Shown here: piece after piece, positions 4,463 to 20,149 of the stretch | Layout of the letters: each line of letters begins with the position of its first letter | How positions within the stretch are numbered: the stretch's first letter is position 1 | Origin: Candidatus Methylomirabilales bacterium | GTDB taxonomy: Bacteria > Methylomirabilota > Methylomirabilia > Methylomirabilales > CSP1-5 | NCBI GenBank assembly: GCA_046758505.1 | Contig: JBHIAH010000036.1 | Location: forward strand, 1 to 25,290 | Length of the DNA: 25,290 bases | Reading direction: 5' to 3' | The notes under the pieces: model-generated | Databases searched by the model: none | The model's input: the letters and a program-made list of their open reading frames with translations, nothing else | What the model was told of the DNA's origin: nothing | Position numbers and translations under genes: made by a program

Positions 4463-4525
4463 GTCCACCGTCCACAGTCCACAGTCGGATCTGATCGCAA
4501 AGACCTCGGACCTCGCACCTCGGAC
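4463..4525. repeat. Inverted pair of degenerate heptamer arrays (GTCCACA / GACCTCG)
   Basis: gtccacc gtccaca gtccaca gtc (4463-4486) and gacctcg gacctcg cacctcg gac (4502-4525). Confidence 0.75.
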
Positions 4526-4557
4526 GGTACACCCGGCTGGGAGGCAACCGCGCCCTT

Positions 4558-5217
4558 CTAGGCAGAGGGGTTTGCCAGGCCTTTCATCTGTCGGACGACC
4601 CCAACCGGATCCGCGCTCTGAAACACGGCCGAACCGGCCACCAGGATCGATGCCCCCGCCTTGGCGATCCGGTCACAGTTCCCTACCTTGATCCCTCCGT
4701 CAACCTCGAGCTCGCACCGAAGCTGGCGCGCGTCGAGACGCCGCCGCATCTCTTCCACCTTCTGCTCCACCTCGGGGATGAAGGCCTGCCCCCCGAATCC
4801 GGGATTCACTGACATCAACAGGATCAGATCGACCTCGTGGATCACCGGATCGACGGCCTCGAGGGGGGTGGAGGGATTCAGGGCCACGCCAGCCTTCGTC
4901 CCCGTCTCCTTGATCTGCCGGATGGTGCGGTGCAGGTGGGGACAGACCTCGGCATGGACGGTCAGGCAGTCGCTTCCGGCCTTGGCCAGATCCGTGATGT
5001 AACGTTCGGGGTACTGCACCATCATGTGCACATCAAAGGGGACCGCTGTCCGCGGACGCAGGGATCGGATGACGCTCGCCCCATAGCTGATCACGGGGAC
5101 GAAGTGACCGTCCATCACGTCGAAGTGGAGGAGGTCGGCCTCCTGCTCGACCGCCAGGATCTCCTCGGCCAGCCGGCCATAATCCACCACGAGGACTGCC
5201 GGTGCGATCTTTACCAT
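4558..5217 (-). CDS. rpe: Ribulose-phosphate 3-epimerase
   Basis: IAPAVL, HFDVMDGHFVP, DVHMM, LNPSTP, MSVNPGFGGQ, EVDGG and VAGSAVF. RBS GGGAGG upstream. Confidence 0.97.
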   Translation of the reverse strand: MVKIAPAVLVVDYGRLAEEILAVEQEADLLHFDVMDGHFVPVISYGASVIRSLRPRTAVPFDVHMMVQYPERYITDLAKAGSDCLTVHAEVCPHLHRTIRQIKETGTKAGVALNPSTPLEAVDPVIHEVDLILLMSVNPGFGGQAFIPEVEQKVEEMRRRLDARQLRCELEVDGGIKVGNCDRIAKAGASILVAGSAVFQSADPVGVVRQMKGLANPSA

Positions 5218-5233
5218 TGCGGGCCTCCCGCCC

Positions 5234-5310
5234 GTTCATGGTTGAAGGTTCAGGGTTCAGAGTCCTCCAACACTTCCCCCACCGTGAACTATGAACTGTG
5301 AACCGTGAAC
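5234..5310. repeat. Inverted pair of degenerate heptamer arrays (GTTCAnn / nnTGAAC)
   Basis: gttcatg gttgaag gttcagg gttcaga (5234-5261) and cgtgaac tatgaac tgtgaac cgtgaac (5283-5310). Confidence 0.85.
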
Positions 5311-6021
5311 CTATTGGGCTACAACGAGCGTCACCTCCTCTTTCTCCTTGATCCGCGTCCCGAAGGAGGGGTCTTGCAGAACCACCCGCCGGGCCAGACC
5401 GGGAAAGGACTGGTACGTCACCCTCGGCGAAAGGCCCATCTCCTTCAGGATGGCTACGGCTTCTTCCTCTATCTGCCCGACCAGGTTGGGCATCACATAG
5501 AATCGCTCTGGTTCTCCCAGGCTGATCAGCAGACTCACCGCACTCCCCCGTCGGGCGGGGAAACCTGCGGGCGGATCCTGGGCGATCACGACGCCCCCCG
5601 GCAGCCGCGTGTGCACCTTGGCGGTCTGCCCCAAGAGCAGGCCCTGCTCTGCCAAGAGCCGCTGACTATCGGTAAGGGGCTGGCCCACCAGGTCCGGGAC
5701 CAATGTCTCGTCACTCCCCTTGCTGATGGTGAGACGGATCTCTTTGTTCCTGCGGACACGGGAGCCCCCCGAGGGGCTCTGCCGGATCACCGTGCCCTTG
5801 GGAAAGGCCACGTGGTACTCCTCACCGGCCATCCGAGGCTTGAGTCCCACCTCCCGGATCTGGCGGGCCGCCTCCTTCAGCTCCAACCCGATCACGACCG
5901 GGACATCGGTCCGGTCCTGCTCGAGGGAGAGATTCATGGCAATGTACCCGGAGAGGACGGCCAGGAGAAGGAGGCCGACCGCAACCCCGGCACCCTTCAG
6001 GACAGTGTGAAGCCAACGCAT
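5311..6021 (-). CDS. Membrane-anchored protein with three PASTA domains
   Basis: N-terminal TM helix, then three repeats beginning VPVVIG, VPDLVG and MPNLVG, each with a V..Q.P..G motif. ATG 6021 is preceded by GGAGGG. Confidence 0.88.
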   Translation of the reverse strand: MRWLHTVLKGAGVAVGLLLLAVLSGYIAMNLSLEQDRTDVPVVIGLELKEAARQIREVGLKPRMAGEEYHVAFPKGTVIRQSPSGGSRVRRNKEIRLTISKGSDETLVPDLVGQPLTDSQRLLAEQGLLLGQTAKVHTRLPGGVVIAQDPPAGFPARRGSAVSLLISLGEPERFYVMPNLVGQIEEEAVAILKEMGLSPRVTYQSFPGLARRVVLQDPSFGTRIKEKEEVTLVVAQ

Positions 6022-6036
6022 GAATCCCTCCACCCC

Positions 6037-7380
6037 TCAGTGTCGTCGCAGCCTGGCGGCAAAGTAGCCATCGGTATCATGACGGTGTGGCCACGTGGCG
6101 ACACACCCCTCGGTGAGCAACGCGCCTCTCCCCCCCCGAAAAAAATCGGGCAGGCTGTCTTCGCGACAAAACGCCGGATGCCGGGCCAAAAACCTCGCCA
6201 CGATCTCCTCCCCCTCCTCCGGCTCCCGACTGCACACCGCATACACGAGAACCCCCCCGGGGCGGAGGCAGTCCGCCGCGCCGTCCAGGATCGCTCCCTG
6301 CAACTCAGCCAGCCGAGAGATATCTGCCGACCCCCGGTGCCATCGGATCTCCGGGCGCCGCCGCACCGTCCCCAACCCCGTGCAGGGGGCATCCACCAGG
6401 ACCCGATCTGCCCACCCCGCGAACTGCCCGGCGGCCACGCGCGCATCCCCCCTCACCGGACTCGTGATCGTGGCGCCCAGACGTCGGCGCCCGTCCTGCA
6501 GGCGTCGGAGGGCCCGGGGACTCACGTCAAGGGCCACGACCTCTCCCCGGTTCTCCATCAGCATCGCGGCCAGGGCGGCCTTGCCCCCACCTCCCGCACA
6601 GGCGTCCAAGACCCGCTCCCCCGGTCGCGGATCCAACAGCCGCACGACAACGGCTGCGGCTTCGTCCATGACCCAAAACGCCCCCCGATCCCGGGCCGAG
6701 CCGGTGAGCAGCGTGCCTGCCTCCCGGACCCGAAACATGTTCGGAACCCAGGGGCTCGTCTCCCACGCCGCCCCCGCCCGCATGAGGGCTTCCTCCAGCC
6801 CGGCGACGCTTCCCCGAAGCACGTTCCACCCGATCCCGACGGGCGGAACCCGGTTGTTGGCTTGCATGAGCTGGAGCGCCTCGTCCCCCAACTGTTTTCG
6901 CCATCGCTCCACCAACCAGGGGGGGTGAGAGAAACGCACTGCCATTTCATGGACGGGGTCCTCGGGCAGCTCCTCCTCCCGCAGCGGGCCGCGTCGCGCG
7001 AGCGCCCGCAGGATGGCATTCACAAAGCTTCCCGCGCCCCGCCGCGCCACCCGGACCGTTTCGTGCACCGCCGCGTACGCCGGGATCCTGGTCAGATAAA
7101 AGAGCTGATACGCCCCCAGCCGCAGCAGATTCCTCACGTCGAGGTCGACGGCTTCGAGCGGACGATCCACAACGCGGGAGAGGAGAAAGTCAATCGTCCC
7201 CCGATGCCGCAGGACCCCGTAACACAGCTCCGTCGCCAGCGCCCGGTCGCGGGGATTCAGCCGCTGCCGCCGAAGCCGGGCGTCCAGCAGGACATTGGCG
7301 TAGGCCCGGTCCCGCTCAACCCGGACGAGGATCTCCAGGGCGAGCTGTCGCGGATTGTTGCCGAGTCGGGACGAAGGCAC
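6037..7380 (-). CDS. rsmB: 16S rRNA m5C967 methyltransferase RsmB/Sun
   Basis: NusB-like N-terminus (RQLALEIL...ELCYGVLR...LRLGAYQL), SHPPWL, LDACAGGGGK, DAPCTGLG, VYAVCS, EGEE and DGYFAARL. Start is GTG 7380 or 7404 (uncertain). Confidence 0.93.
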   Translation of the reverse strand: MPSSRLGNNPRQLALEILVRVERDRAYANVLLDARLRRQRLNPRDRALATELCYGVLRHRGTIDFLLSRVVDRPLEAVDLDVRNLLRLGAYQLFYLTRIPAYAAVHETVRVARRGAGSFVNAILRALARRGPLREEELPEDPVHEMAVRFSHPPWLVERWRKQLGDEALQLMQANNRVPPVGIGWNVLRGSVAGLEEALMRAGAAWETSPWVPNMFRVREAGTLLTGSARDRGAFWVMDEAAAVVVRLLDPRPGERVLDACAGGGGKAALAAMLMENRGEVVALDVSPRALRRLQDGRRRLGATITSPVRGDARVAAGQFAGWADRVLVDAPCTGLGTVRRRPEIRWHRGSADISRLAELQGAILDGAADCLRPGGVLVYAVCSREPEEGEEIVARFLARHPAFCREDSLPDFFRGGRGALLTEGCVATWPHRHDTDGYFAARLRRH

Positions 7381-8299
7381 TCCCCGCTTCGGTGTGGTAC
7401 CCACGGGAAAACTCCTCGGCCGTCATGACCCGCCTCCCCTCCGGCTGGAGAGCGGTGAGCAGCAGCATCCCTCTTCCCGTCGCTACCCCGATCCCCATCC
7501 CCTTATACACCCCGAGGATGGTGCCTGCTGCCTGCCGATGATCCTCCGGCACGGGTTGTGCCCCAAACACCCGCACCAATCGCCCTCGGAAAAAGGTGTA
7601 GGCCCCCGGCTCCGGGGCGAGCCCCCGCACGAGATTCCAGAGATCGACGGCGCTCCGGGACCAGTCGAGACACCCGATGTCCGGCGGAAGCTTCGGCGCA
7701 TAGGTGGCCTCGGCCTCGTTCTGGGGAACCCCGGTCACCTCCCCGTGCTCCCGGAGGCGCAACGCCTCGATGAGCGCCTCGGCGCCGAGCGCCGCCAGGC
7801 GATCATGAAGGATCCCCGCGTTATCCTCAGGAACGATCGGGATCTGCCGCTGCAGGACAATGGGCCCGGCATCCACCGCCTCGACGATCTCCATAACGGT
7901 GACGCCCGTCACCGTCTCCCCCCGGATCAGGGCCCACGGGATCGGGGCCGCCCCTCGGTACTTGGGCAAGAGAGAGGCATGCACATTCAGGCTCCCCCGG
8001 GGAGCGATCTCGAGGACCGCTCGGGGCAGGATCTGCCCGAAGGCGACCACCACAAGAACGTCGGCCTGCAACCGGCCCAGGTGGCCCACCACATCGGGGT
8101 CCCGGATTTCCACCGGCTGGATGACGGGAAGGCCGGCCTCCTCGGCCGCCTGCTTGACGGGGGGTTTGCGGAGCCGCTTCCCCCGGCCTGCGGGGCGATC
8201 AGGTTGGGTGACCACCGCCGCCACCTCATGCCCCACCTCCAGCACGCGGCGGAGCGACGGAACAGCGAACGCCGGCGTCCCCAGGAAAATCACCCGCAT
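7316..8299 (-). CDS. fmt: Methionyl-tRNA formyltransferase
   Basis: MRVIFLGTPAFA, VVTQPDRPAGRG, VVAFGQIL, NVHASLLPKYRGAAPI, DAGP, TYAPK and LQPEGRR. Confidence 0.97.
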   Translation of the reverse strand: MRVIFLGTPAFAVPSLRRVLEVGHEVAAVVTQPDRPAGRGKRLRKPPVKQAAEEAGLPVIQPVEIRDPDVVGHLGRLQADVLVVVAFGQILPRAVLEIAPRGSLNVHASLLPKYRGAAPIPWALIRGETVTGVTVMEIVEAVDAGPIVLQRQIPIVPEDNAGILHDRLAALGAEALIEALRLREHGEVTGVPQNEAEATYAPKLPPDIGCLDWSRSAVDLWNLVRGLAPEPGAYTFFRGRLVRVFGAQPVPEDHRQAAGTILGVYKGMGIGVATGRGMLLLTALQPEGRRVMTAEEFSRGYHTEAGSAFVPTRQQSATARPGDPRPG

Positions 8300-8757
8300 A
8301 GCGCCCGCACGGTCTCTTCCATGTGGTGCAGGTGCGTCCCTCCCCAGAAGATTCGCCCGCACTCCTCGCAATGAAAGAACACGTCATGATGCCGAAAGAC
8401 GTAGTCCGGGACACGCCCCGCGGCTCGGTCTTTCCTTAGGGGGGCGAGGGACCGATTACAGCGAAGACACCGGCTCCCAAGCCGCTCCCCAACCCTGAGC
8501 CCGAGTACGCCGGCCACCTGTCGTAGCTGGTCCCACACATGATCATGGTGGATAAAGAGGATCCGGCAGAGCCGACGCCGCAGGAGGATGCGCGTATCCC
8601 GAGTCAGGAGGATCCGTCCCTCGCGCATTGCGAGGGTGATCAGGTGCCCGTCCGGGGCATCTCGGAAATAGAGGGTGTCGTACCCCAGGATCCGAAGCCA
8701 CTTGGCCAACTTGCCCAGCATGCTATCGGCGACGAACCGGATTTCCTTCTCGCTCAT
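8290..8757 (-). CDS. Mut7-C RNase domain protein (PIN-like fold plus Zn ribbon)
   Basis: FVADSMLGKLAKWLRILGYDT, RILLTRD, SRCLRCN and CEECGRIFWGGTH. Confidence 0.92.
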   Translation of the reverse strand: MSEKEIRFVADSMLGKLAKWLRILGYDTLYFRDAPDGHLITLAMREGRILLTRDTRILLRRRLCRILFIHHDHVWDQLRQVAGVLGLRVGERLGSRCLRCNRSLAPLRKDRAAGRVPDYVFRHHDVFFHCEECGRIFWGGTHLHHMEETVRALCG

Positions 8758-8830
8758 GACCGGAATCTCCGTGCCAGGCCATCACCATACCATACCGCCC
8801 TCCTCCTGAACAGGGGGCAGCCCTCTCGGG

Positions 8831-9063
8831 AGCCGTCAGCCGTCAGCTATGAGGGGCAAACAGCTGCAAGGCTGGAAAGCTAGAATGCTTGGAGGCTCGA
8901 ACCCGAGAATGCCCACAGGTTTGCAAGGGAGAATCCCAGGAAGCCCGAAAGACTCTCCCGCTTCGTCCTCGGTAGCCTCATAGCTTACCAGCGTTCTCGC
9001 GTCCCAGCTTCCGAACGTTCTAGCGCTACTGACTGCTGATTGGTGATTGCTGACAGCTGATGG
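8831..9063. repeat. Nested inverted repeat arrays: outer 7-mers (TCAGC/GCTGA core), inner 8-mers (GCTnGAAn-like)
   Basis: Outer arms are agccgtc agccgtc agctatg (8831-8851) and ctgactg ctgattg gtgattg ctgacag ctgatgg (9029-9063). Inner arms are gctgcaag gctggaaa gctagaat gcttggag gctcgaac... (8863-8950) and tcggtagc ctcatagc ttaccagc gttctcgc gtcccagc ttccgaac gttctagc (8969-9024). Confidence 0.8.
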
Positions 9064-9065
9064 AA

Positions 9066-9097
9066 TTGACATTGACACGCTGTCCCTTTCGTACTAT
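9066..9097 (+). promoter_or_regulatory. Possible sigma70 promoter for the MgtE_N/CBS gene
   Basis: Tandem TTGACA TTGACA (9066-9077) and TACTAT (9092-9097). The spacing of 14 or 20 nt is non-optimal. Confidence 0.35.
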
Positions 9098-9122
9098 GTA
9101 GGCCGTGGTGGGAGGGGTCCCC

Positions 9123-10415
9123 ATGCAGCAGGAACCTCCAGAACGGATTACATTTCTGACGCGTCTGCAGTCGCGGCCGGTTTTGGACAGCCGCGGCAGG
9201 ACGGTGGGAACGGTGAAGGACCTCGGAGTGCTGTTCTGGGGAATCCACCCCCGGGTGGGTAAGCTGAGCATCGCCCGGGCCGGCGAGGGAGACTTGCTGC
9301 TCCCCTGGGACGTGGTGGCGGAGATGGCGGAGACGCCAAGAGGCCCCACCATCATCCTGGATCGCCCCGCCGAAGAGCTCACCCCCACCGATCTCCGGGG
9401 AGACGAGATGGCGCTCGGACGCAACATCCTGGACAAGAAAGTGATGGATACCCACCGTCACCGGGTGGTCCGCGTCAACGATGTGCAGCTCGAGTGGCGA
9501 GACGACGGCTACCACGTGGTGGCCGTGCTCGCCGGGATGCACAGCTTACTTCGCCGACTCCTCCCCGAGAGACTTTGCGAGAGGATCGTCTCGAGCTTCG
9601 GGGTCGAGATCCCCCGGGAGGTGGTCCCCTGGGAGCACGTCGAGCCCATCGAGACCGAACTGACCTGGGCACGAAAGCAGGCCGTCTACACGAAACTCGC
9701 GCAACTCCACCCGGCAGACATCGCCGATATCATGGAGGAGCTGAACCCGGGCGAGCGGGCGGCCATCCTCAACGCCTTGGACGCCGAGACGGCAGTCGAG
9801 GCCCTGACGGAGACCGAGGCCGAGGTCCAAGCCGGTTTGATCCAGATGCTCGAGCCGGAGAAGGCCTCGGACCTGCTCGAGATGATGGAGCCGGACGAGG
9901 CGGCGGACATCCTGGGGGACCTCCCCCAATCCAAGGCCCAAGAGTTGCTGCAAGAGATGGAACCGGCCGAAGCGGAAGATGTGGCGGAACTCTTAGAGCA
10001 TGAGGAAGACACCGCCGGTGGGATGATGACAACCGAGTACGTGGCTTTCCCTCCCGAGGCCACGGTGGGCCAGACCCTGGAGAAACTGAAGGCGATGGCG
10101 GAAGAGGTAGAGACCATCTACTATGTCTACGTGGTCGATCCGTCCGAGCGGCTGCTAGGGGTGGCCAGCCTGCGGGAGTTCATGATGGCCCGTGCCGAGC
10201 AGCGGCTCGACGAGATCATGACCCCGCACGTCATCACCGTCAAGCCCGAGGCCCCCCTCAGGGCGGTGGCCGAGACGCTGTCGAAATATAATCTCCTGGC
10301 CCTCCCGGTGGCGGATGCAGAAAGGAAGCTCGAGGGGATCGTGACCGTCGATGACGTCCTCGACGATCTGATCCCAATGATATGGAAGCAGCGGACGGCA
10401 AAAAAGTACATATAG
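9123..10415 (+). CDS. Soluble PRC-barrel + MgtE N-terminal + tandem CBS domain protein (no MgtE transmembrane domain)
   Basis: Two PRC-like segments (VLDSRGRTVGTVKDL; ILDKKVMDTHRHRVVRVNDV), LHPADIADIMEEL, MEPDEAADIL, EDTAGGMMTTEY, IYYVYVVD, KYNLLALPV and GIVTVDDVLD. The protein ends without TM helices. RBS GGAGG upstream. Confidence 0.9.
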   Translation: MQQEPPERITFLTRLQSRPVLDSRGRTVGTVKDLGVLFWGIHPRVGKLSIARAGEGDLLLPWDVVAEMAETPRGPTIILDRPAEELTPTDLRGDEMALGRNILDKKVMDTHRHRVVRVNDVQLEWRDDGYHVVAVLAGMHSLLRRLLPERLCERIVSSFGVEIPREVVPWEHVEPIETELTWARKQAVYTKLAQLHPADIADIMEELNPGERAAILNALDAETAVEALTETEAEVQAGLIQMLEPEKASDLLEMMEPDEAADILGDLPQSKAQELLQEMEPAEAEDVAELLEHEEDTAGGMMTTEYVAFPPEATVGQTLEKLKAMAEEVETIYYVYVVDPSERLLGVASLREFMMARAEQRLDEIMTPHVITVKPEAPLRAVAETLSKYNLLALPVADAERKLEGIVTVDDVLDDLIPMIWKQRTAKKYI

Positions 10416-10508
10416 GACGCTCTCAGCAGGAGGACCCTCCAGACCGCTCGGACGGTGATCTGCGCAATTGTGGCGCAGCGTCATGGGCCGGGCGGGGCGA
10501 GGCGCGCT

Positions 10509-11744
10509 ATGCGAATGGCGCACCGGCACAAGCGGCGGCTCCTCGTCTTTTTGTCGATCATGGGGCCGGGAATCATCACCGCCAGCGTGGATCAGGACGC
10601 GGGTGGGATCGCCACCTACTCCCTGGCAGGCGCCCAATACGGCTATACCCTGCTCTGGGCCCTCTTCTTGACCACCATCAGTCTCGCCGTCGTGCAGGAG
10701 ATGGGGAGTCGGATGGGGGTGGTGACCGGCAAGGGACTGGGGGAGCTGATTCGGGAGCGTTACGGCGTCCGCCCCGCCGTGCTAATCCTCGTGATCCTCG
10801 TCCTCGCCAACCTGGCCAACACCATCGCCGAATTCGCCGGGGTGGCCGCTGCCTTTGAGATCTTCGGCGTCCCCCGGTTTCTCTCCGTTCCCCTCACCGC
10901 TTGCTTCGTCTCCTGGCTCGTCGTACAAGGGACGTACGCCAGAGTGGAGCGGGTCTTCCTCATCGCAAGCGCCTTGTACCTGCTCTATGTGGTCTCCGCC
11001 GTCCTGGCCGACCCGCCCTGGGCCGCGGTCCTCCGCCAGACGATCCGCCCCTCCTTTCAGATGGATCGAAACTATCTCGTCATGCTGATCACGCTGGTTG
11101 GGACCACGATCGCCCCCTGGATGCAATTCTACCTGCAGTCCTCCACCGTGGATAAGGGACTCCGGTGGAGAGATTACAAGTACGCCCGCCTCGACGTAAT
11201 CATCGGAGCCTTCGTGGCCAGCGGCGTGGCCTACTTTATCATCGTCGCCTGCGCGGCCACGCTCAACGCGCACGGCATCCGTATCGAGACGGCCGTGGAT
11301 GCGGCCAGGGCACTCGAGCCCTTCGCCGGGCCGTATGCCAGCCTCTTCTTTGCCCTGGGGCTCCTCAATGCCTCGATCTTCTCGGCAGCCGTGCTCCCTC
11401 TGAGCACGGCCTATGCCACCTGCGAGGCTCTTGGCTGGGAGACCGGCGTGGACCGGCGTCCCCGAGAGGCACCGGAATTTTTCACCATCTACCTGGTCAT
11501 GATCGGGATCGGGGCCGCCACCATCCTCTGGCCCCATCTACCCCTCATTCCCATCATGTTCCTCTCCCAGACGCTGAACGGCATCCTCCTCCCGTTCACG
11601 CTGATCATCGTGCTCCAGCTGGTCAACGATCGCGAGATCATGGGAGAGGCGGTCAACTCGCCCCTCTTGAACCTCATCGGGTGGGGCACCGCCTTCTTGA
11701 TGTCCGCCCTCACCCTCCTCCTCCTACTCACCCTGATTTTCTGA
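10509..11744 (+). CDS. Nramp-family divalent metal transporter, NRMT (Mg2+-type) subgroup
   Basis: MGPGIITASVDQDAGGIATYS.AGAQYGY.LLW, QEM..RMGVVTGKGL and GTTIAPWMQFY with about 11 TM. The canonical DPGN and MPH motifs are absent. Start ATG 10509 or 10515 (uncertain). Confidence 0.88.
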   Translation: MRMAHRHKRRLLVFLSIMGPGIITASVDQDAGGIATYSLAGAQYGYTLLWALFLTTISLAVVQEMGSRMGVVTGKGLGELIRERYGVRPAVLILVILVLANLANTIAEFAGVAAAFEIFGVPRFLSVPLTACFVSWLVVQGTYARVERVFLIASALYLLYVVSAVLADPPWAAVLRQTIRPSFQMDRNYLVMLITLVGTTIAPWMQFYLQSSTVDKGLRWRDYKYARLDVIIGAFVASGVAYFIIVACAATLNAHGIRIETAVDAARALEPFAGPYASLFFALGLLNASIFSAAVLPLSTAYATCEALGWETGVDRRPREAPEFFTIYLVMIGIGAATILWPHLPLIPIMFLSQTLNGILLPFTLIIVLQLVNDREIMGEAVNSPLLNLIGWGTAFLMSALTLLLLLTLIF

Positions 11745-11960
11745 GGTCACTCCGCACGACCCGAGGGTGCAGAAGATTGGCGGCTGCTAGACTTTTGGAG
11801 AGGCTGATCCAACTTATTGGCATTTCTCAGAAAGGCCGCCGCTATTAATGGTGACTATGATAAGGAGATGCCTTATTAAAGTTGTTGAGCCAAAACCTTC
11901 ATAGCAACTTTTCCGTGTTAACTCTTTTGGCAAACACGCGGACGGAATTGATGAAAGTGG

Positions 11961-12104
11961 TTGGTCAAGGCGGTCATCTTGCGGGAGATCACGGGGCGAG
12001 AGTGGAAACGTGTATATTGCGCCGAGGAACTCCTGCGGCCCATCGAAGGACAATCGACACAATCCAGAAGGACACGATCGAGAGACGATCGGTCGCGACC
12101 ATGA
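11961..12104 (+). pseudogene. Probable 3' remnant of a Fic-family protein (C-terminal winged-helix tail)
   Basis: Manual translation from 11961 gives LVKAVILREITGREWKRVYCAEELLRPIEG, resembling the L...GIL.E.TG..RNRV(F/Y).A..(I/L)L tail of Fic proteins. In-frame stops lie just upstream and no Fic core is seen. Recognised by eye only. Confidence 0.5.
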
Positions 12105-12120
12105 GGTGAGTGGTTTCCCG

Positions 12121-12149
12121 GTGACAACGCCTTAGCTGTCCTTTATGAT
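12121..12149 (+). promoter_or_regulatory. Putative sigma70 promoter of radC
   Basis: GTGACA-17 nt-TATGAT, ending 38 nt before the GTG start. Confidence 0.55.
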
Positions 12150-12187
12150 GCACCCCAAACGATGATCCGGAAATTCAGGAGCGACCG

Positions 12188-12919: not shown

Positions 12920-12926
12920 GACACGA

Positions 12927-12968
12927 GGCGGCCAGCTGTCAGCGATCGGCGTAAGGCGAAAGGCAGGA
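12927..12968. repeat. Orphan single arm of a degenerate heptamer array
   Basis: ggcggcc agctgtc agcgatc ggcgtaa ggcgaaa ggcagga, i.e. RGC at period 7, directly after the radC stop. Confidence 0.5.
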
Positions 12969-12984
12969 GCCGGATCTGCTGCGT

Positions 12985-13650
12985 TTAGATGGTTTGCCCG
13001 GGAATGCCGACGGGCAGCCCGCGGGGGAGCGTGCGGGCCCTCTCGAGGCGGTCGCACAGCGGGGTGTCGAACAACAGCTCAGGCAACGCCTCGGGCTCGG
13101 GATAGATGACCTGCCAATGTCCGGCGGCGATCTCGGCCCGCAGCTGCCCCGGCGCCCAGCCGGACACCCCCAGACAGGCAACCACCTGCCTGACCCCCGC
13201 CGTCCCCGCACCAATATCCCGCAGCACGTCGGCAGTCTGGGTGATCCCTACCACGCCCAGGTTCCAGGAACGCGGCCATTTCCCCGGGGGAGTGTGAATG
13301 AGGGAGAGAAGGCCACCCCGCCCAACGGGACCTCCGTACAGCACCTCCGACTCGGCGTATCGATCGAAGGTGGCGCGATCACGGAACTGGATTTTCATCC
13401 GGGCCATGATGCGGCCCAGGCTTCGGTGGCCCGCCTTGTTGACGATCAGCCCCTCGGTCCCTTGCGGCCCGTGCTCGAACAGGAGGACGACGGAGTCGCG
13501 GAACGGCGGGGTCCGGATCTTGGCGAGCAGCAGCGCCCCTGCGACCGGTGGTTTTTCCCCGGCCCGGGCGAAGCCCCGGGGAAGAAGGATGGAGAGGCCT
13601 CCCGCCCCCAGGGCGGAAAGGAACGCCCTCCGGTTCAAGCGCTGTGGCAT
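12985..13650 (-). CDS. YqgE/AlgH (DUF179) family protein with a Tat-type signal peptide
   Basis: LNRRAFL twin-arginine motif, hydrophobic stretch and ARA site, then F.DSVVLL.EH...G..GLIVNK, YGGPV and G.SGWAPGQL..EI..G.W. RBS AAAGGAG precedes ATG 13650. Confidence 0.85.
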   Translation of the reverse strand: MPQRLNRRAFLSALGAGGLSILLPRGFARAGEKPPVAGALLLAKIRTPPFRDSVVLLFEHGPQGTEGLIVNKAGHRSLGRIMARMKIQFRDRATFDRYAESEVLYGGPVGRGGLLSLIHTPPGKWPRSWNLGVVGITQTADVLRDIGAGTAGVRQVVACLGVSGWAPGQLRAEIAAGHWQVIYPEPEALPELLFDTPLCDRLERARTLPRGLPVGIPGQTI

Positions 13651-13729
13651 AGGGAAATCTCCTTTCCGGCAGAAAAGCAGTGCAGCTTTTCCCAGGATTC
13701 GGCACACAACATCCAGCAAGGGAATCGAG

Positions 13730-14170
13730 TCAGTGCCTTTGCCGGAGCGCCTCGATCCGGGCGCGGATAGCCGACGCCCCTGCCGACGTTGGCTCCAGCC
13801 GAAGAGACCGCTCATATAAAGCGATCGCATCGGCGAACTGGCCCTCCTCTTCGAACAGGAGGGCGAGGGCCCGGTGGAGCGCAGCGTCATCAGGGCTCAG
13901 GCGGAGGGCGGCCCGATATTCGCGAATCGCCTCCGCCCGCTTACCGAGCCCCGCATACACCTGCGCCCGCTCACGGTGCATCACGGAGGACGATCCCGGC
14001 CTCGACGGGACGAGTTCATGCCCACCCCACAGCGCCACGATGGCGATTCCGACGACCACGACGCAGACCGCTATCAGGAAAAAGCTGATCCGCCAATCGA
14101 GCCAGAATCGGCCAAGGGGAATGCGGCGTCCCCGCGGCACCGGAGTGTCAGGGGTGTTCGGCCTGGGCAT
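13730..14170 (-). CDS. Membrane-anchored TPR protein
   Basis: One TM helix (ISFFLIAVCVVVVGIAIVALW), then two TPR motifs (A..Y...G...EA...YR.AL.L.P; LA......G...DA...YE.SL.L.P). Confidence 0.8.
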   Translation of the reverse strand: MPRPNTPDTPVPRGRRIPLGRFWLDWRISFFLIAVCVVVVGIAIVALWGGHELVPSRPGSSSVMHRERAQVYAGLGKRAEAIREYRAALRLSPDDAALHRALALLFEEEGQFADAIALYERSLRLEPTSAGASAIRARIEALRQRH

Positions 14171-14199
14171 GGCTTTTCTCGTCGTTGGGTGACATGCCC

Positions 14200-14228
14200 A
14201 TGCTAAAGAAGAGCAGCGGCCTTGTCAA
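14200..14228 (-). promoter_or_regulatory. Putative sigma70 promoter of the TPR-YqgE unit
   Basis: Minus strand TTGACA (14228-14223)-17 nt-TAGCAT (14205-14200). Confidence 0.7.
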
Positions 14229-14274
14229 TGCCGTCCCACCGGCGTGTTCCGCGCGGCGCGAGACGAGTTTGGGG

Positions 14275-14303
14275 TTGCAAAATCGCCGTAAACGCGCTAG
14301 CCT
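14275..14303 (+). promoter_or_regulatory. Putative sigma70 promoter of the ftsEX operon
   Basis: TTGCAA-17 nt-TAGCCT, upstream of the GGGGAG RBS and ATG 14342. Confidence 0.6.
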
Positions 14304-14341
14304 CCGGCGAAAGCGGGAACGCGAGGACGCGGGGAGACGTG

Positions 14342-15004
14342 ATGATTCAGATGTTTCATGTCTCCAAGATCTATCCAAAGGAGGTGGTGGCCCTCTCGGA
14401 CATCACCCTCCACATCCAGAAGGGGGAATTCGTCTACCTCTGTGGCCCAAGCGGCGCCGGAAAAACCACCCTCCTGCGCCTCGTCTTTCGGGATGAACTG
14501 CCCACCTCCGGCCAGATTCTGGTGAACGGCCGCAATGTCGTCCGGCTTCGGGAGAGCAAGCTGCCATCCCTGCGGCGCAGCATCGGCGTGATCTTCCAGG
14601 ATTTCAAACTCCTCATGGACCGGAGCGTGTACGACAATCTCCACCTGGTCACCCGGGTCCTGGGAATCCCGGAGGCCATCAGCCGGCGCAAGATCGGCCG
14701 CCTCCTGAAAGAGGTCGGCCTGCTCCAGAAGGCCGATCAGATTCCCTACAAGTTGTCAGGCGGGGAGCAGCAGCGGGTCGCCATCGCCAGGGCCCTGATG
14801 AGCGACCCGGCGATCCTCCTGGCGGATGAGCCGACCGGGAACCTCGATCCGGATCTCGCCCTGGACGTCATGCGCCTCTTGGGGGAGGTGAACATCCGCG
14901 GGACCACGGTGGTCGTGGCCACCCACAACCCCAAGCTCGTCTCCGAGATGGGTCACCGCACCCTCGTGCTGAAGCACGGACGCCTGGTGGAGGAGATCCC
15001 GTAA
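14342..15004 (+). CDS. ftsE: Cell division ATP-binding protein FtsE
   Basis: [11 protein letters not shown], Walker [46 protein letters not shown] and VATH. Lies upstream of ftsX. Confidence 0.95.
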
Positions 15005-15323
15005 TGCCGTTCCAACTATTCACGCCAACCCGGAGAAACTGATGCACTACACCTACGCGCTGGTGAGCCAACCGGACAAGAGGATCTCCACAGGCAGCAC
15101 CAAAGACCTTCGGAATAGGGTCCGTGAACACGCGGAAGGTCGCATCCGCTCAACTGCATACCGACGACCCGTGACGCTAATCTACTACAAGGCTTGCCTG
15201 AGTGCCGACGATGCCTTGCGCAGGGAGCGATTCCTCATGACCGGTAAGGGGAAGCGTTACCTACGCCACCGCCTCACTTCCTTCTTCGCAGGCATTCGGG
15301 ACAAGAAGTTGGAACGGTACTAA
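15002..15323. mobile_element. Putative inverted-repeat-bounded GIY-YIG cassette inserted between ftsE and ftsX
   Basis: Left end TAATGCCGTTCCAACT (15002-15017) matches the reverse complement of AGTTGGAACGGTACTA (15307-15322) at 14/16, with an 11-bp perfect core. TAA occurs at both ends (15002-15004 and 15321-15323). Confidence 0.6.
15042..15323 (+). CDS. Small stand-alone GIY-YIG nuclease family protein (possibly degenerate)
   Basis: YTYAL.S...(S)TGST.DL..R..EH..G...ST..RRP..LIYY.AC....A.RRE.FL.TG.G pattern. RBS GGAG upstream. Confidence 0.85.
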   Translation: MHYTYALVSQPDKRISTGSTKDLRNRVREHAEGRIRSTAYRRPVTLIYYKACLSADDALRRERFLMTGKGKRYLRHRLTSFFAGIRDKKLERY

Positions 15324-15326
15324 CCC

Positions 15327-16229
15327 ATGTTCTGGGAGCGGTCCCGACACCTGCTGGACGAGACCTTCCTCAATTTCCGCAGGGGGGGGTGGGGGGTGGT
15401 GGCGTCCATCGGGGCCATCACCGTGGCCTTCCTGGTGGCGGGAATCTTCCTGCTCCTGACCCTAAACTTGAGCACCGTGGTGGTCCGGTGGGCGGAGGAC
15501 TTCCAGGTGGTCGTCTTTCTCCGCGACGGGATCACCCCGGCGCAGCGGACCTTTCTCCGGAAACGACTGGATGGAGAGATGGCGGTCCGCACGGTGACCT
15601 ATGTCTCGAAGGAGAACGCCCTGGCCGACTTCCGGAAACAGATCCGGGGCCAGGAAAGCCTGCTGGAGGGGCTCAAGACGAACCCCCTGCCCGCCTCCTT
15701 TCAGCTGCGGATTCGGAAAACGTACCAGACGGGCGCCGCCCTGGGACAACTCGCCGCCTCGCTCAAGCGGATGGAAGGTGTCGAAGACGTCCTGTACGGC
15801 CAGGAGTGGGTCGAACGTCTGGCCAGCCTGATCCAGGTGATGAAAGTCCTCGGGGTCGTCATTGGGGCCGTGTTGGGGGTTGCTTCCCTCTTTATCGTGG
15901 CCAACACGATCCGATTGGCCGTGTACGCCCGCGCCCAGGAAATCGAAATCATGCGCATGGTCGGGGCCACCCGGGCCCACATCCAGATCCCCCTCATCCT
16001 CGAAGGCACCGTGCAGGGCGGGCTCGGGGCCGCCTTGGCCTTGGGCCTCCTCTATGTCTTGTTCCGAGGGACCCTGTGGCAATTGGGAGCGTCCGCCCCC
16101 CTGCTCTTCCCCCAACCTGAACTGGGCCATTTCCTCGGAACCCAGTACCGGATGGCCATGGTCGGCGTCGGCGCGCTGCTGGGGGGCGTGGGCAGCTTGG
16201 TGGCGGCCCGACGGTTTCTCAAGGTGTAA
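15327..16229 (+). CDS. ftsX: Cell division permease FtsX
   Basis: TM1, periplasmic domain (YVSKENALADF, NPLPASF, GVEDVLYGQEW), IVANTIRLAVYARAQEIEIMRMVGAT, P..LEG and further TMs. Confidence 0.95.
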   Translation: MFWERSRHLLDETFLNFRRGGWGVVASIGAITVAFLVAGIFLLLTLNLSTVVVRWAEDFQVVVFLRDGITPAQRTFLRKRLDGEMAVRTVTYVSKENALADFRKQIRGQESLLEGLKTNPLPASFQLRIRKTYQTGAALGQLAASLKRMEGVEDVLYGQEWVERLASLIQVMKVLGVVIGAVLGVASLFIVANTIRLAVYARAQEIEIMRMVGATRAHIQIPLILEGTVQGGLGAALALGLLYVLFRGTLWQLGASAPLLFPQPELGHFLGTQYRMAMVGVGALLGGVGSLVAARRFLKV

Positions 16230-16238
16230 GAGGAGGGA

Positions 16239-17420
16239 ATGGGACGCGTCCACGCTGGCGTGGCGGTGGCGGTGGCGGCCGTGCTGTTGGTGCCGGGAGG
16301 TCTTCAGGCCCGTGAGCGTGGAACGCTGCGCGAGAAGAAGCAGAAGCTCCAGACACTGAAGAAAGAGATCGCGGCGGAACGGAAGAAAGCCAAGCAAACC
16401 GCTGCGAAAGAGGCGGCTGCCCAGGCGACCCTCACAAAGATTCGTCGGCAGCTTCGGCAGAAGACGCGCCAGCTCAAGACGCTGGAGATAAAACTCCAGG
16501 CCCAGGAGCGGGCCCTCCGCAGGCTGAAACGGTCGATCAGCCGGGCGGAGCACGAGCGGCAAAAGATCACCGAGCGCTGGGCCCGCCGCCTCCGGGCCGT
16601 GTATAAGCAGGGACAGTTTGGCGTGTTCCGCCTGCTCCTCTCTTCCGAGAGCCTGACCGACATGGCGCGCCGGATGAAGTACCTCCGGATCATCACCGCC
16701 CAGGACCGGATCCTGAGCAAACGGTACGCCTCCACCGTGATCACCCTCCACAAGAAGCAGGCCGCACTCACGTCCCGCCGGGCCGCCCTGGCGAGGAGCC
16801 GAAATCGCGTCCGGGCAACGGAGGGGGCCATCGCCGATGAGAAGTGGCGGCAGCGGATCCTGCTGGCCCGGCTCCGAGAGGAGAAGGAGGGCTACTTCAC
16901 CGCGATCCGGGAGCTCGAAAAGGCCTCCGCCCGTCTCCAGGATCTCATCACAACGCTCAGCAAACAGGCGAAGGCCCGGGCGCGCCTGTCGCCCGCCCCT
17001 CCGCGAGGGGCGTTTGCTGCATTAAAGGGCAAGCTCCCCTGGCCCACCAGCGGAAAACTCGCCTTCCGCTTTGGCCGGCAGGACAATACCAAGTTTCATG
17101 CCAGGATCTTCAACAAGGGGATTGGGATTCGCGCTCCCCTGGGCCGGCCGATCCAGGCGGTCTATGACGGCACGGTCCTCTATGCCGACTGGTTTCGGGG
17201 GTACGGCAAGTTGCTCATCCTGGATCACGGCCACGGCTTCTATTCGCTGTACGCCTACGCCTCGGACTTCCTGGTCCAGGTGGGCGAGTCGGTGCGGGCT
17301 AGCCAGCCCATCGGGCGCGTTGGGGAGACCGGGTCCCTCGAAGGGCCCCAGCTCTATTTTGAACTGCGCTACCAGGGAGAGCCGCAGGACCCTCTTGCGT
17401 GGCTTTCCCCCCGGCCCTGA
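16239..17420 (+). CDS. envC: Murein hydrolase activator EnvC-like (coiled coil plus degenerate M23 domain)
   Basis: Signal peptide, long coiled coil, KGKLPWP, GYGKLLILDHG and LYFELR. Zn ligands are degenerate (NKGIGI, SLYAYA, LYF) as in EnvC. Follows ftsX. Confidence 0.88.
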   Translation: MGRVHAGVAVAVAAVLLVPGGLQARERGTLREKKQKLQTLKKEIAAERKKAKQTAAKEAAAQATLTKIRRQLRQKTRQLKTLEIKLQAQERALRRLKRSISRAEHERQKITERWARRLRAVYKQGQFGVFRLLLSSESLTDMARRMKYLRIITAQDRILSKRYASTVITLHKKQAALTSRRAALARSRNRVRATEGAIADEKWRQRILLARLREEKEGYFTAIRELEKASARLQDLITTLSKQAKARARLSPAPPRGAFAALKGKLPWPTSGKLAFRFGRQDNTKFHARIFNKGIGIRAPLGRPIQAVYDGTVLYADWFRGYGKLLILDHGHGFYSLYAYASDFLVQVGESVRASQPIGRVGETGSLEGPQLYFELRYQGEPQDPLAWLSPRP

Positions 17421-17445
17421 CATTTTCGCCTGACCCGCCCCCCTG

Positions 17446-17454
17446 TGGTATACT
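17446..17454 (+). promoter_or_regulatory. Possible extended -10 promoter of ctpA
   Basis: TG-G-TATACT about 60 nt upstream of ATG 17517, which has an AAAGGAGG RBS. No convincing -35. Confidence 0.5.
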
Positions 17455-17516
17455 TCTTGTATATCCCAGGGGGCACCCCCCGGGAGGGGGACTTGCGTGC
17501 AAAGGAGGTTCCTACC

Positions 17517-18809
17517 ATGTTCTCCAGGATACAGACGGGGCGGATGCGCATTATATTGGTGATTGCGTTGTTGACCGTGATCATCGTGACCAGCGGCGTT
17601 CAGTACCGGGTCGTGGCTACGGAGGAGCCCTACGACACGCTCAAGGTCTTTACCGAGGTCCTCACGCTGGTGCGAAGCAACTACGTCGAAACCACGCAGC
17701 CCAAGAACCTGATCTATGGGGCAATTCGGGGAATGCTGAACACGTTGGACCCCCACAGCTCGTTCATGCCGCCCGACGTCTACAAGGAGATGCAAATCGA
17801 AACCCATGGGAGCTTCGGCGGATTAGGGATCGAGATCACGGTGCGGGACCGGTATCTGACGGTGGTCGCCCCCATCGACGGGACCCCGGCGGATCGGGCT
17901 GGGCTCCACGCCGGAGACCGCATCGTCCGGATCGACGGCGCCCCGACTAAGGACATGACGCTGATGGAGGCGGTCCGAAAGCTCCGGGGACCCAAAGGCA
18001 CGCAGGTGACCGTCACCATCCTCCGCGAGGGGACGGAACCCTTTGATGTCCCCATCACCCGCGACATCATCGAAGTCCACAGTGTCCGCCAGTCAGATCT
18101 CGGGGAAGGGATTGGATACATTCGGCTGGTCTCATTTCAGGAACGGACCCGCCGGGACCTGGAGGAGGCCCTCACCGAACTCGAGGAGAATGGCATGCGC
18201 GGCCTCGTCCTTGACCTCCGGAATAACCCCGGCGGCTTGCTGAGTCAGGCAGTCCAGGTGGCTGATCTCTTTCTGGAGAAGGGAAAGCTGATCGTCTATA
18301 CCGAGGGCCGGGCGAAAAATCAGAACCTGCGCTTTGTCGACGAACATGAGAATCCCCAGGGCTTCCCTCTGGTGATCCTGGTGAACAAAGGCTCCGCCAG
18401 CGCCTCCGAGATCGTGGCCGGAGCACTCCAAGACCATCAGCGGGCGGTCCTGGTGGGAACGCAGACCTTTGGCAAGGGGACGGTCCAGACGGTGATTCCG
18501 CTCAAGGACGGCTCCGGGCTCAGGCTCACGACCGCCAAATATTTCACCCCGAGTCAGCGGGCCATCGACAGGACCGGCATCGCGCCGGACATCGTCGTCG
18601 AGCCGCCGAAGCCGGCGACGACGGCCAAGACCCGGCCCCCAACCAACCGGCAGGGACGGACGATCGGCGAGCAGGAAGGCGACACCTCCCGGCCCCTGGG
18701 GCGGCGCGCCCCCGATCCCAAGAAGGATCCGCAACTCGAACGCGCCGTGGAGGTCCTGAAGGCGATCCTGATCTTCAAGGGGCCCCCGGGGACGATGGCT
18801 TCCGGCTAG
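17517..18809 (+). CDS. ctpA: S41 family carboxy-terminal processing protease
   Basis: LDPHSSF, PDZ motif FGGLGIEI, LDLRNNPGGLL, SASASEIVAGALQD, TFGKGTVQ, LTTAKYFTP, GIAPDI and DPQL. Confidence 0.95.
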   Translation: MFSRIQTGRMRIILVIALLTVIIVTSGVQYRVVATEEPYDTLKVFTEVLTLVRSNYVETTQPKNLIYGAIRGMLNTLDPHSSFMPPDVYKEMQIETHGSFGGLGIEITVRDRYLTVVAPIDGTPADRAGLHAGDRIVRIDGAPTKDMTLMEAVRKLRGPKGTQVTVTILREGTEPFDVPITRDIIEVHSVRQSDLGEGIGYIRLVSFQERTRRDLEEALTELEENGMRGLVLDLRNNPGGLLSQAVQVADLFLEKGKLIVYTEGRAKNQNLRFVDEHENPQGFPLVILVNKGSASASEIVAGALQDHQRAVLVGTQTFGKGTVQTVIPLKDGSGLRLTTAKYFTPSQRAIDRTGIAPDIVVEPPKPATTAKTRPPTNRQGRTIGEQEGDTSRPLGRRAPDPKKDPQLERAVEVLKAILIFKGPPGTMASG

Positions 18810-18824
18810 TCGGCAAGCCAAAGA

Positions 18825-18984
18825 AGCTGCCAGCGGCCAGCCGTCAGCAACCAATAAATGGCAGTCAGCCGTCCGCAGTCAGCAGTCAGCTTTAGAGTTG
18901 TTAGGGTTACTACGCATTCTTGCTGACTGCTGATAGCTGATCGCTGACAGCGGATATTTTGCTGATTGCTGACTGCTGATAGCT
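18825..18984. repeat. Double (nested) inverted heptamer arrays, TCAGC/GCTGA core
   Basis: Left arms agctgcc agcggcc agccgtc agcaacc (18825-18852) and ggcagtc agccgtc cgcagtc agcagtc agc (18860-18890). Right arms gctgact gctgata gctgatc gctgaca gc (18922-18951) and gctgatt gctgact gctgata gct (18961-18984). Confidence 0.88.
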
Positions 18985-18995
18985 TTTGGGAAGGT

Positions 18996-20057
18996 ATGGC
19001 TGACCTTATCCTGGGCATCGAGACCTCGTGTGATGAAACCGCGGCTGCGGTGCTGGAGGCGGGCGAAAAGATCCGATCCAACATCGTGGCATCGCAGGCA
19101 GGGCTCCACGCCCCGTACGGAGGGATCGTCCCCGAGCTCGCCTCCCGGCGCCACCTGGAGATGATCGGCCCGGTCATCCGGCTGGCGATCCGCGAGGCGG
19201 GGATGGACTTTGCCGACCTGAGCGGCATCGCGGTGACGGTCGGCCCCGGCCTGGTGGGCTCTCTCCTCGTCGGCGTGTCGGCCGCCAAGGCGTTAGCGTA
19301 CACCCTGGGAAAGCCGCTCGTGGGTGTCAACCACATCGAGGGGCATCTGACCGCCGGGCACCTTGACCATCCCCACCTCGGGACCCCCTATGTGGCCCTA
19401 GTCGCCTCGGGGGGGCACACGCACCTGTATCACGCGGCGGCTCCAGGGAAATACTCCCTGCTGGGCTGCACCCGAGACGACGCGGCCGGAGAGGCCTTTG
19501 ATAAGGTCGCCAAGATCCTCGGCCTGCCATACCCGGGCGGCCCCCAGGTCGAACGCGTTGCGCAGGCCGGCGATCCCCGCTCCGTCCCCTTCCCCCGGCC
19601 GATCCTCGGTCATGGATCGCTCGACTTCAGCTTCAGCGGACTCAAGACCGCGGTCATCCATTATCTCGAGAAGCGAGGGTCCAGGCCACCTCGGAGACGG
19701 GGCAGCCCCAAGGCGGGTGGCCGCGACTCCGCCCCGCTGCATCGCCAGCTCGTGGCGGACATCGCCGCCAGCTTTCAGCAGGCGGTCGTCGATGTCCTGA
19801 CGCGCATTACGATCAAGGCTGCCCGGCGCGTCAGCGCCAGGCGCATCCTCCTGACGGGCGGGGTCGCCTGCAACCAGACCCTTCGACGCCACCTGGCGCA
19901 CGAAGCCATCCGCCATGGAATCGAGGCGTACTGGCCCCGCCCCGAGCTCTGCACCGACAACGCCGCCATGATCGCCGCGGCCGGATCCGCCCGCCTCGGC
20001 CGAGGCGAGCTCGCCCCGCTCGACCTCAATGCCGCCGCGAATCTCCCCCTCTGCTAA
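18996..20057 (+). CDS. tsaD: tRNA N6-adenosine threonylcarbamoyltransferase TsaD
   Basis: ILGIETSCDET, GGIVPELASRRH, GPGLVGSL, VNHIEGH, SGGHT, DDAAGEAFDK, FSFSGLKTAV, GGVACN and CTDNAAMIA. Confidence 0.97.
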   Translation: MADLILGIETSCDETAAAVLEAGEKIRSNIVASQAGLHAPYGGIVPELASRRHLEMIGPVIRLAIREAGMDFADLSGIAVTVGPGLVGSLLVGVSAAKALAYTLGKPLVGVNHIEGHLTAGHLDHPHLGTPYVALVASGGHTHLYHAAAPGKYSLLGCTRDDAAGEAFDKVAKILGLPYPGGPQVERVAQAGDPRSVPFPRPILGHGSLDFSFSGLKTAVIHYLEKRGSRPPRRRGSPKAGGRDSAPLHRQLVADIAASFQQAVVDVLTRITIKAARRVSARRILLTGGVACNQTLRRHLAHEAIRHGIEAYWPRPELCTDNAAMIAAAGSARLGRGELAPLDLNAAANLPLC

Positions 20058-20062
20058 CCGAT

Positions 20063-20149
20063 AGTCGAGAGTCGAGCGCTCAGAGTCGAGAGACTTCAGA
20101 ACAATAAACGGAGACCCTGACTCTCAACTCTCGACTCTCCGCTCTCAAC
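20063..20149. repeat. Inverted pair of degenerate heptamer arrays (AGTCGAG / TCTCRAC)
   Basis: agtcgag agtcgag cgctcag agtcgag (20063-20090) and ccctgac tctcaac tctcgac tctccgc tctcaac (20115-20149), between the convergent tsaD and SurA-like stops. Confidence 0.85.

Follow-up and report, generated by a model that had tools for sequence, protein, structure and literature searches.

Inverted heptamer arrays between housekeeping genes of a Methylomirabilales bacterium behave as replaceable elements and share arm families with four-helix-bundle genes

An excess of heptamer repeats in bacteria has been noted since 2007 with no accepted cause, as cited in two later reports (PMC4692102 and PMC4679880). 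In Xanthomonas (GGGAATC) and Nostoc (GGGGA(C/T)T), intergenic heptamers stand mostly in four units, with 70 to 75 inverted pairs (Rehm et al. 2015, PMC4692102); the same paper cites the existence of the short tandemly repeated repetitive (STRR) heptamers of filamentous cyanobacteria. Geobacter metallireducens carries three to five tandem units of 7 to 8 nucleotides (nt), paired on opposite strands at variable distance and falling into several classes per genome (PMC2700814). Paired heptamers also build the P6b stem-loop of the Nostoc tRNA-Leu intron, in a Class I (TDNGATT) or a Class II (NNTGAGT) version (Kaasalainen et al. 2015, PMC4476775), and in Coxiella burnetii the 23S rRNA intervening sequence (S23p) encloses a PF05635 gene within terminal inverted repeats that contain tandem heptamers, GACAGAT (PMC4990558). 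Here we analyze inverted heptamer arrays in a stretch of 25,290 nt (hereafter the window), contig C36 of a Candidatus Methylomirabilales genome of 2.99 Mb, 62.8% G+C and 96.8% completeness, labeled G000. The arrays have arms of fixed length, one-way polarity and built-in mismatches; they share arm families with four-helix-bundle (PF05635) genes, replace one another at gene junctions, nest within one another and copy their middles. We favor, with moderate confidence, the reading that they are gene-less copies of a non-autonomous, arm-bounded mobile cassette that acts at the DNA level, that recombination over short tracts overwrites it, and that the arms are likely read by the four-helix-bundle protein.

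The G000 arrays are of the same general kind as the Xanthomonas, Geobacter and STRR repeats: intergenic 7-mers far above chance, about four units long, and often paired on opposite strands. STRR sequences themselves are intergenic tandem heptamers of several classes with unsettled function, found in a different phylum and defined as tandem arrays rather than as paired, replaceable cassettes. The Xanthomonas and Nostoc heptamers are described as one core word per genome studied, at conserved positions and with a G-quadruplex reading (PMC4692102), whereas G000 holds at least nine non-G-tract words that overwrite one another; because its main units lack GGG tracts, they fall outside the G-quadruplex subset of those genera. 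The Geobacter pairs were interpreted as IHF/HU regulator sites, with no turnover or cargo analysis in the available text (PMC2700814). The Nostoc P6b stem-loop resembles the G000 arrays in its wholesale class replacement with structure kept and in its nested insertions, but it is a single locus in intron RNA, with no protein-gene link in the excerpt available (PMC4476775), as against many intergenic sites in G000. The Coxiella heptamer is one base away from a G000 unit, GACCGAT. The Coxiella element lies in helix 45 of the rRNA and is excised by RNase III (PMC4990558); the window elements, at six sites, all lie between protein-coding genes and none inside a 23S rRNA gene, and hold no open reading frame (ORF). 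The window thus shares with S23p the heptamer-built terminal inverted repeats but neither the rRNA location nor the PF05635 ORF, which does appear in the cassettes of relatives. Terminal inverted repeats, though here imperfect and periodic, also recall MITEs (miniature transposable elements with inverted repeats), but the many near-identical full-length copies of a MITE were not seen, most middles (the sequence between paired arms) being single copy. The arrangement of a diversity-generating retroelement, a reverse transcriptase (RT) beside an Avd gene, was absent: PF00078 was not found in G000, and also not in 10 of the 14 genomes of the genus, and none of 12 RT loci in congeners held a four-helix-bundle gene. 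By the criteria tested, the elements work like known heptamer systems, yet they are neither rRNA intervening sequences nor classical MITEs.

The intergenic DNA of G000 held 696 period-7 arrays, compared to 14 to 21 in three third-order Markov sequences used as controls. Other periods from 5 to 11 gave 26 to 84 arrays, with periods 8 and 9 also above control (84 and 64 versus 10 to 29). The period-7 arrays grouped into 368 clusters. Nine family patterns detected 440 arms, which overlapped just 403 of 723 arrays; therefore, further families exist. Within a unit, four or five positions were near invariant and two or three variable. Four-unit arms made up 232 of the 440, with 155 arms of three units and 53 of five or more, and the four-unit peak recurred in relatives. 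A first-pass annotation of the window had set beforehand, as a test, that arms be inverted more often than chance genome-wide, and this was borne out: among 104 same-family neighbors no more than 300 nt apart, 80 were left-right, 3 right-left and 21 direct. Left and right are labels derived from such pairs, and the informative figures are the 83 inverted versus 21 direct and the polarity inside families, which ran one way at 39:2 and 28:1. Of 102 adjacent left-right pairs, 77 had both arms from one family, where 26% would be expected. Among gaps of at least 60 nt, arms occurred in 175 of 1,004 tandem, 17 of 100 convergent and 5 of 134 divergent ones (genome-wide gap and gene counts, here and below, use our own hexamer-model gene calls and include the errors of that model). 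All three gap types described for the window are thus occupied, the divergent type rarely. The proximity to stop codons seen in the window also held genome-wide: of 139 outward left arms adjoining a stop codon, 97 began within 15 nt of it, and the median distance of left arms behind the stop was 8 nt. The proposed loose GTYNR register fitted the four window families but failed for the GACCG, GTGAT, GTNTT and TTCGA families elsewhere in G000; by column counts, a looser variable-purine-T register fits most families.

Two other repeats were seen in the same gaps. An 8-base family with paired layout lies at 8848-9028 of the window and in the ctpA-tsaD gaps of G002, G005 and G008. A 190- to 200-nt internally palindromic repeat has about 22 to 25 copies (G000 C1:146321-146518, C5:52445-52640, C100:1941-2158 and others), often between GACCG-family arms, and is present in the PASTA-rpe gaps of three congeners; it may explain the missing short-range pairs of GACCG arms.

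The first-pass annotation had described hairpins that would be regularly bulged, and the mismatch proved to go beyond chance. At the variable positions, arms were less complementary to their own partner than to shuffled partners of the same family (0.774 versus 0.803 in 39 elements and 0.729 versus 0.766 in 28), with 0 of 500 shuffles as low, or 12 and 6 of 1,000 after orienting by transcription. Complementarity was again below chance in relatives (28 and 23 elements, 0 of 500 shuffles as low). Mismatches on the transcribed strand of 54 tandem-gap elements comprised 72 G·U versus 84 A·C, against 38 G·U and 21 A·C in a control set of ordinary hairpins from arm-free gaps. Since the control hairpins show a G·U excess that the arms lack, the stems are not tuned for RNA stability, and the suggested RNA-stem role drew no support from this test. 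On the sense strand, purine-purine mismatches outnumbered pyrimidine-pyrimidine ones (105 versus 49), a strand bias to which we assign no cause. The stem is imperfect, whether by design or by survival.

That similar arms flank small four-helix-bundle genes had been stated in the first-pass annotation for other genomes and was confirmed in relatives of G000. TIGR02436 matches occurred in 22 of 31 genomes of the order and in 10 of 13 congeners, and flanks were analyzed for a subset of 50 genes. Arrays stood on both sides of 28 of 44 untruncated four-helix-bundle genes, compared to 12 of 455 similar-sized G000 genes, and on at least one side of 41 of 44 compared to 84 of 455. One of the nine genus-derived families bracketed 8 of 48 four-helix-bundle genes in left-gene-right order; the reverse order was found 0 times. 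At two junctions, a congener carries a filled site where G000 has empty arms (586 nt versus 265 nt and 563 nt versus 163 nt). The cassette protein is of the PF05635 family, with a bAvd-like Pfam match below the cut-off (E 8e-7), and matches the five-chain structures 2GSC and 2RLD. The full form of the cassette family likely carries such a gene. In G000, the sole four-helix-bundle gene (C116:3930-4430, at 1400-1900 of locus L001) is interrupted by an in-frame TAG and lies between decayed heptamer arms. Separately, the G000 assembly breaks at the end of C56 and the start of C121; in G020 and G027, the two genes on either side of this break flank a four-helix-bundle cassette.

The first-pass annotation had named two other candidate cargoes. 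GxxExxY was found in none of the 14 genus genomes; of 16 genomes from elsewhere in the order, 5 have it, and five flanks there show inverted 9- to 10-base repeats by eye (L382-L386). A small GIY-YIG ORF in the window (15042-15323, plus strand; PF01541, E 2e-11) has no flagged heptamer arms and stands between ABC ATPase and permease genes, which we take to be ftsE and ftsX. At junction 4 of locus L222, G008 carries a small GIY-YIG-like ORF by a tRNA gene and a partial tRNA duplicate, with none in G004.

To follow the elements between relatives, we compared junctions across 14 genomes of the genus (G000 and 13 congeners), with families assigned by eye, and 12 of 20 fetched 20-kb stretches of G004 with four relatives at about 85 to 98% identity, the first seven stretches having been picked for high array counts. 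Among these five close relatives, 33 of 34 array-bearing tandem gaps of at least 60 nt were polymorphic compared to 27 of 62 plain ones; the new stretches alone gave 7 of 8 versus 13 of 26 (p 0.10). Old spacers were replaced, often together with the stop codon, which differed in 111 of the 202 pairs that had changed, compared to 11 of the 65 that had not (pairs that are not independent). Flanking sequence was more diverged by changed junctions (23 junctions) on the stop side (0.108 versus 0.063, p 0.017) and perhaps on the start side too (0.040 versus 0.012, p 0.056). Alleles were common across genomes in a mosaic pattern, newer elements were nested in old arms, older arm remnants persisted, and alleles gained and lost 7-nt units. 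A by-eye reading of the compared alleles, which was not a systematic scan, showed no target-site duplication. Within G000, 29 of 131 middles had a second copy, compared to 5 of 131 control stretches, some matches being degenerate arms or another repeat family; therefore, some segments of arm plus middle have been copied between loci. Substitution rates of arm cores versus middles among close relatives were not used, as partial replacements counted as retained confound them.

The same loci yielded several further observations. A MITE-like insert of 110 to 195 nt, with terminal inverted repeats and a TAG/CTAG duplication, occurs at L227 junction 16 and L222 junction 15 (G004 and relatives), with clean empty sites in G005 at both junctions and in G008 at one. 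In G004 and G011, a number of array junctions consist of N gaps, perhaps because the populations sampled contained mixed alleles, and contig ends are mildly enriched for arrays (21 of 298 versus 3% of random windows). An assembly artefact was rejected as the source of the arrays because independently assembled genomes share alleles. A metagenome scan with TsaD retrieved one close relative among 80 loci.

In the window, the five spacers described by the first-pass annotation were all confirmed, and they lie among housekeeping genes (M23 peptidase, rpe, PASTA protein, Mut7-C RNase, MgtE-like, radC, yqgE, ctpA, tsaD and SurA-like). The features are as follows.

4463-4486: left arm, GTCCA family, unit GTCCACA; tandem gap between rpe and the M23 peptidase gene
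4502-4525: right (inverted) arm, GTCCA family, unit GACCTCG; the 15-nt middle is 4487-4501
5234-5260: left arm, GTTCA family, unit GTTCAGG; PASTA-rpe tandem gap
5281-5311: right arm, GTTCA family, unit ACCGTGA; adjoins the PASTA stop codon at 5311-5313, minus strand
8831-8847: left arm, TCAGC family; divergent gap between the Mut7-C RNase gene and the MgtE-like gene
8848-9028: long middle, a degenerate nested element of the 8-base family, assigned by eye
9029-9062: right arm, TCAGC family; ends just short of a conserved, putatively promoter-like motif
about 12930-12964: single degenerate left arm, TCAGC family; behind the radC stop in the convergent gap with yqgE
18825-18890: two stacked left arms, TCAGC family; behind the ctpA stop
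18922-18984: two stacked right arms, TCAGC family; before tsaD
20059-20092: left arm, GTCGA/GAGAGT family, unit GTCGAGA; behind the tsaD stop in the convergent gap with the SurA-like gene
20120-20149: right arm, GTCGA/GAGAGT family, unit ACTCTCA

Middles in the window span 15 to 181 nt with no PF05635/TIGR02436 ORF inside, and the elements match other loci at about 70 to 89% identity, chiefly through their arms. Comparison of their junctions supported the claim that geometry rather than sequence is conserved, since one junction carries different repeat families in different species. At tsaD-surA, five families occur in 14 genomes while spacer length stays at 79 to 135 nt; the G000 element is common to three congeners, and four other families take its place in ten. 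The ctpA-tsaD gap holds three families in 14 genomes, and two genomes with 96 to 99% identical flanks differ at both tsaD junctions. No long co-conversion tracts from distant species were found in 60-nt windows around tsaD-surA. At PASTA-rpe, at least three families occur among the genus genomes, with families other than GTTCA seen in congeners. The rpe-M23 element is present only in G000, ten congeners having a plain gap of 6 to 51 nt (one further congener was unparsed). The divergent Mut7-C/mgtE gap carries two conserved motifs, one on the mgtE side that is shared by nine genomes and one facing the Mut7-C gene, and the stretch between them differs in family, length and nesting across genomes. 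These motifs may be promoters, though a promoter/terminator consensus scan of 8700-9200 returned no site. The outer and inner layout of the 8831-9062 element is repeated in one congener. The single arm reported at 12927 is present as a weak arm: two of its units fit the TCAGC family pattern, Tandem Repeats Finder gives it no flag, and no array was flagged on the 3' side of radC in 11 congeners. Upstream of radC, a 440-nt gap of lower GC (11745-12187, plus strand) separates it from an Nramp gene, with no confident gene call. Folding scores of the window elements ranged from z 0.0 to -5.7 without consistently favoring the transcribed strand; the 18855-18990 segment reached a z of about -5 on either strand, and the 5226-5316 element gave -0.9 on the transcribed strand versus -3.2 on the opposite one.

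If the arrays are gene-less copies of a mobile cassette, the arms would be recognized as DNA, either as a duplex or as a cruciform. The position of one element between the upstream motifs of two divergent genes supports action at the DNA level. The reader of the arms would most likely be the five-chain four-helix-bundle protein or a host factor recruited by it. Short-tract recombination would copy and overwrite elements, both among the arrays of a single genome and between relatives, with gene ends serving as homology in the latter case; elements would survive where stop codons, ribosome-binding sites and promoters stay functional. The mismatches may protect the inverted repeat from deletion or belong to the recognized feature, and some old copies may be retained as ordinary mRNA hairpins. 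What we infer in this scheme is how the elements move, how the arms are recognized and which of the filled and empty forms descends from the other. The earlier idea of empty relics stands insofar as empty arms exist at junctions filled elsewhere; however, the elements are still turning over and being copied, and no gene remnant was found in the middles, and so descent of each element by gene loss is not established.

Several observations weigh against the mobile-cassette reading. The strict pattern paired just 160 of 440 arms. The arm family differs between the filled and the empty allele at both junctions, and the empty allele is therefore not the filled allele minus its gene. G000 has 368 clusters but a single four-helix-bundle match, interrupted as described, and 3 of 13 congeners have no match, yet two of these (G004 and G008) take part in turnover. 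Neither remnants of four-helix-bundle genes in G000 middles nor genes enclosed by unpaired same-family arms 250 to 1,500 nt apart were found in G000, where the one unpaired left-right pair at that distance has no gene call inside. Arrays and the gene co-occur only weakly across lineages: in a comparison of array density with gene content that rests on 4 to 100 kb per taxonomic family, four genomes without the gene had 0 arrays in 19.8 kb, but a nine-copy genome also had 0, in 7.7 kb. No nuclease, transposase or RT could be tied to the elements, although no search was aimed at transposases. Single-copy middles make up 102 of 131. Finally, some retained alleles were far less diverged than neighboring fourfold sites (8 of 79 versus 35 of 76, in pairs chosen for similarity), which argues for selection on elements once in place; later host use or narrow transfer would fit such conserved old alleles.

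This conservation, together with the placement of left arms a few nucleotides behind stop codons, the depletion of divergent gaps, the purine-purine bias of the sense strand and the strong fold of the ctpA-tsaD element, is what would be expected if the arrays were host-selected RNA hairpins (RNase III sites, 3'-end stabilizers or terminators) of interchangeable sequence, with four-helix-bundle genes riding inside as in the 23S rRNA intervening sequence. RNase III indeed cleaves the Coxiella element where the first heptamer begins (PMC4990558). We nonetheless consider hairpin selection unlikely: the arms lack the G·U excess of the working control, partners are complementary below chance, the 5226-5316 element folds better on the strand opposite to transcription, the rpe-M23 junction works without an array in ten congeners, and one element sits between the upstream motifs of divergent genes. 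Selection on hairpins would also leave the arrival of whole new families unexplained. A fixed unit number, invariant core positions and strand-neutral mismatches would suit binding sites of a host DNA-organizing or regulatory protein, as proposed for the paired tandem repeats of G. metallireducens (PMC2700814). However, core words number at least nine, occurring side by side and displacing each other at a single junction within near-identical genomes, the neighbors are unrelated housekeeping genes, and divergent promoter gaps are depleted, all of which make host protein sites improbable.

Closeness to stop codons and the weak bAvd-like match could also point to an RNA intermediate, in which an Avd-like protein and a borrowed RT copy the hairpin and the upstream gene end back into the chromosome. 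The stop-side flank divergence of the first set (0.113 versus 0.037, 17 junctions) had suggested such a one-sided tract, which we abandoned when five new junctions did not replicate it (0.107 versus 0.16) and divergence was greater on the stop than on the start side at 19 of 33 pooled junctions (p 0.21). Given also the absence of PF00078 from G000 and most of the genus, and of four-helix-bundle genes from the congener RT loci, copying through RNA appears very improbable. Slightly less probable still, and already disfavored, is an origin without any element, as ordinary simple-sequence repeats that polymerase slippage produced and template switching inverted. Mrazek et al. 2007 proposed slippage to explain the heptamer excess (cited in PMC4679880), and it would account for gains and losses of 7-nt units between alleles, but four units are commoner than three and five are rare, template switching predicts perfect complements, the opposite of what was observed, and one small set of families reappears in different species and beside four-helix-bundle genes.

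Parts of this picture are already known separately, namely, four-unit inverted heptamers (Xanthomonas and Geobacter), class replacement (the Nostoc trnL intron) and a heptamer-flanked S23p (Coxiella). New here are the finding that partners are less complementary than chance, the lack of a G·U bias as judged against a control, and the measured replacement rates among close relatives. Our literature searches, largely without subscription papers or supplements, found no report linking intergenic heptamer arms to four-helix-bundle cassettes. A bolder version of the mobile-cassette reading, which we offer tentatively and regard as doubtful, is that the five-chain four-helix-bundle protein operates a class of mobile DNA not yet described, for which the arms serve as recognition ends. 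A code of geometry and not of sequence (four heptamers, obligatory mismatches, inverted) would let the cassette of any family home into and overwrite the site of another with no need of a transposase. Stop codons and intergenic DNA would thereby be rewritten at hundreds of loci in each genome, and the STRRs, the Nostoc P6b class switches and the ORF-bearing rRNA intervening sequences would belong to the same system.

The genus offers dense data that can be compared between genomes, and in them the repeats act as units that can be replaced and that are linked to a single uncharacterized protein family with solved five-chain structures. The question thereby becomes directly testable, through binding of the protein to arms, the role of the mismatches and the overwriting of an empty site. 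If the mobile-cassette reading is true, about one in six of the longer gene gaps, along with the adjoining stop codons, is being rewritten by an unrecognized process, array spacers would be poor phylogenetic or regulatory signals, and a cassette origin would give a testable source for the unexplained 7-base repeats of many bacteria.

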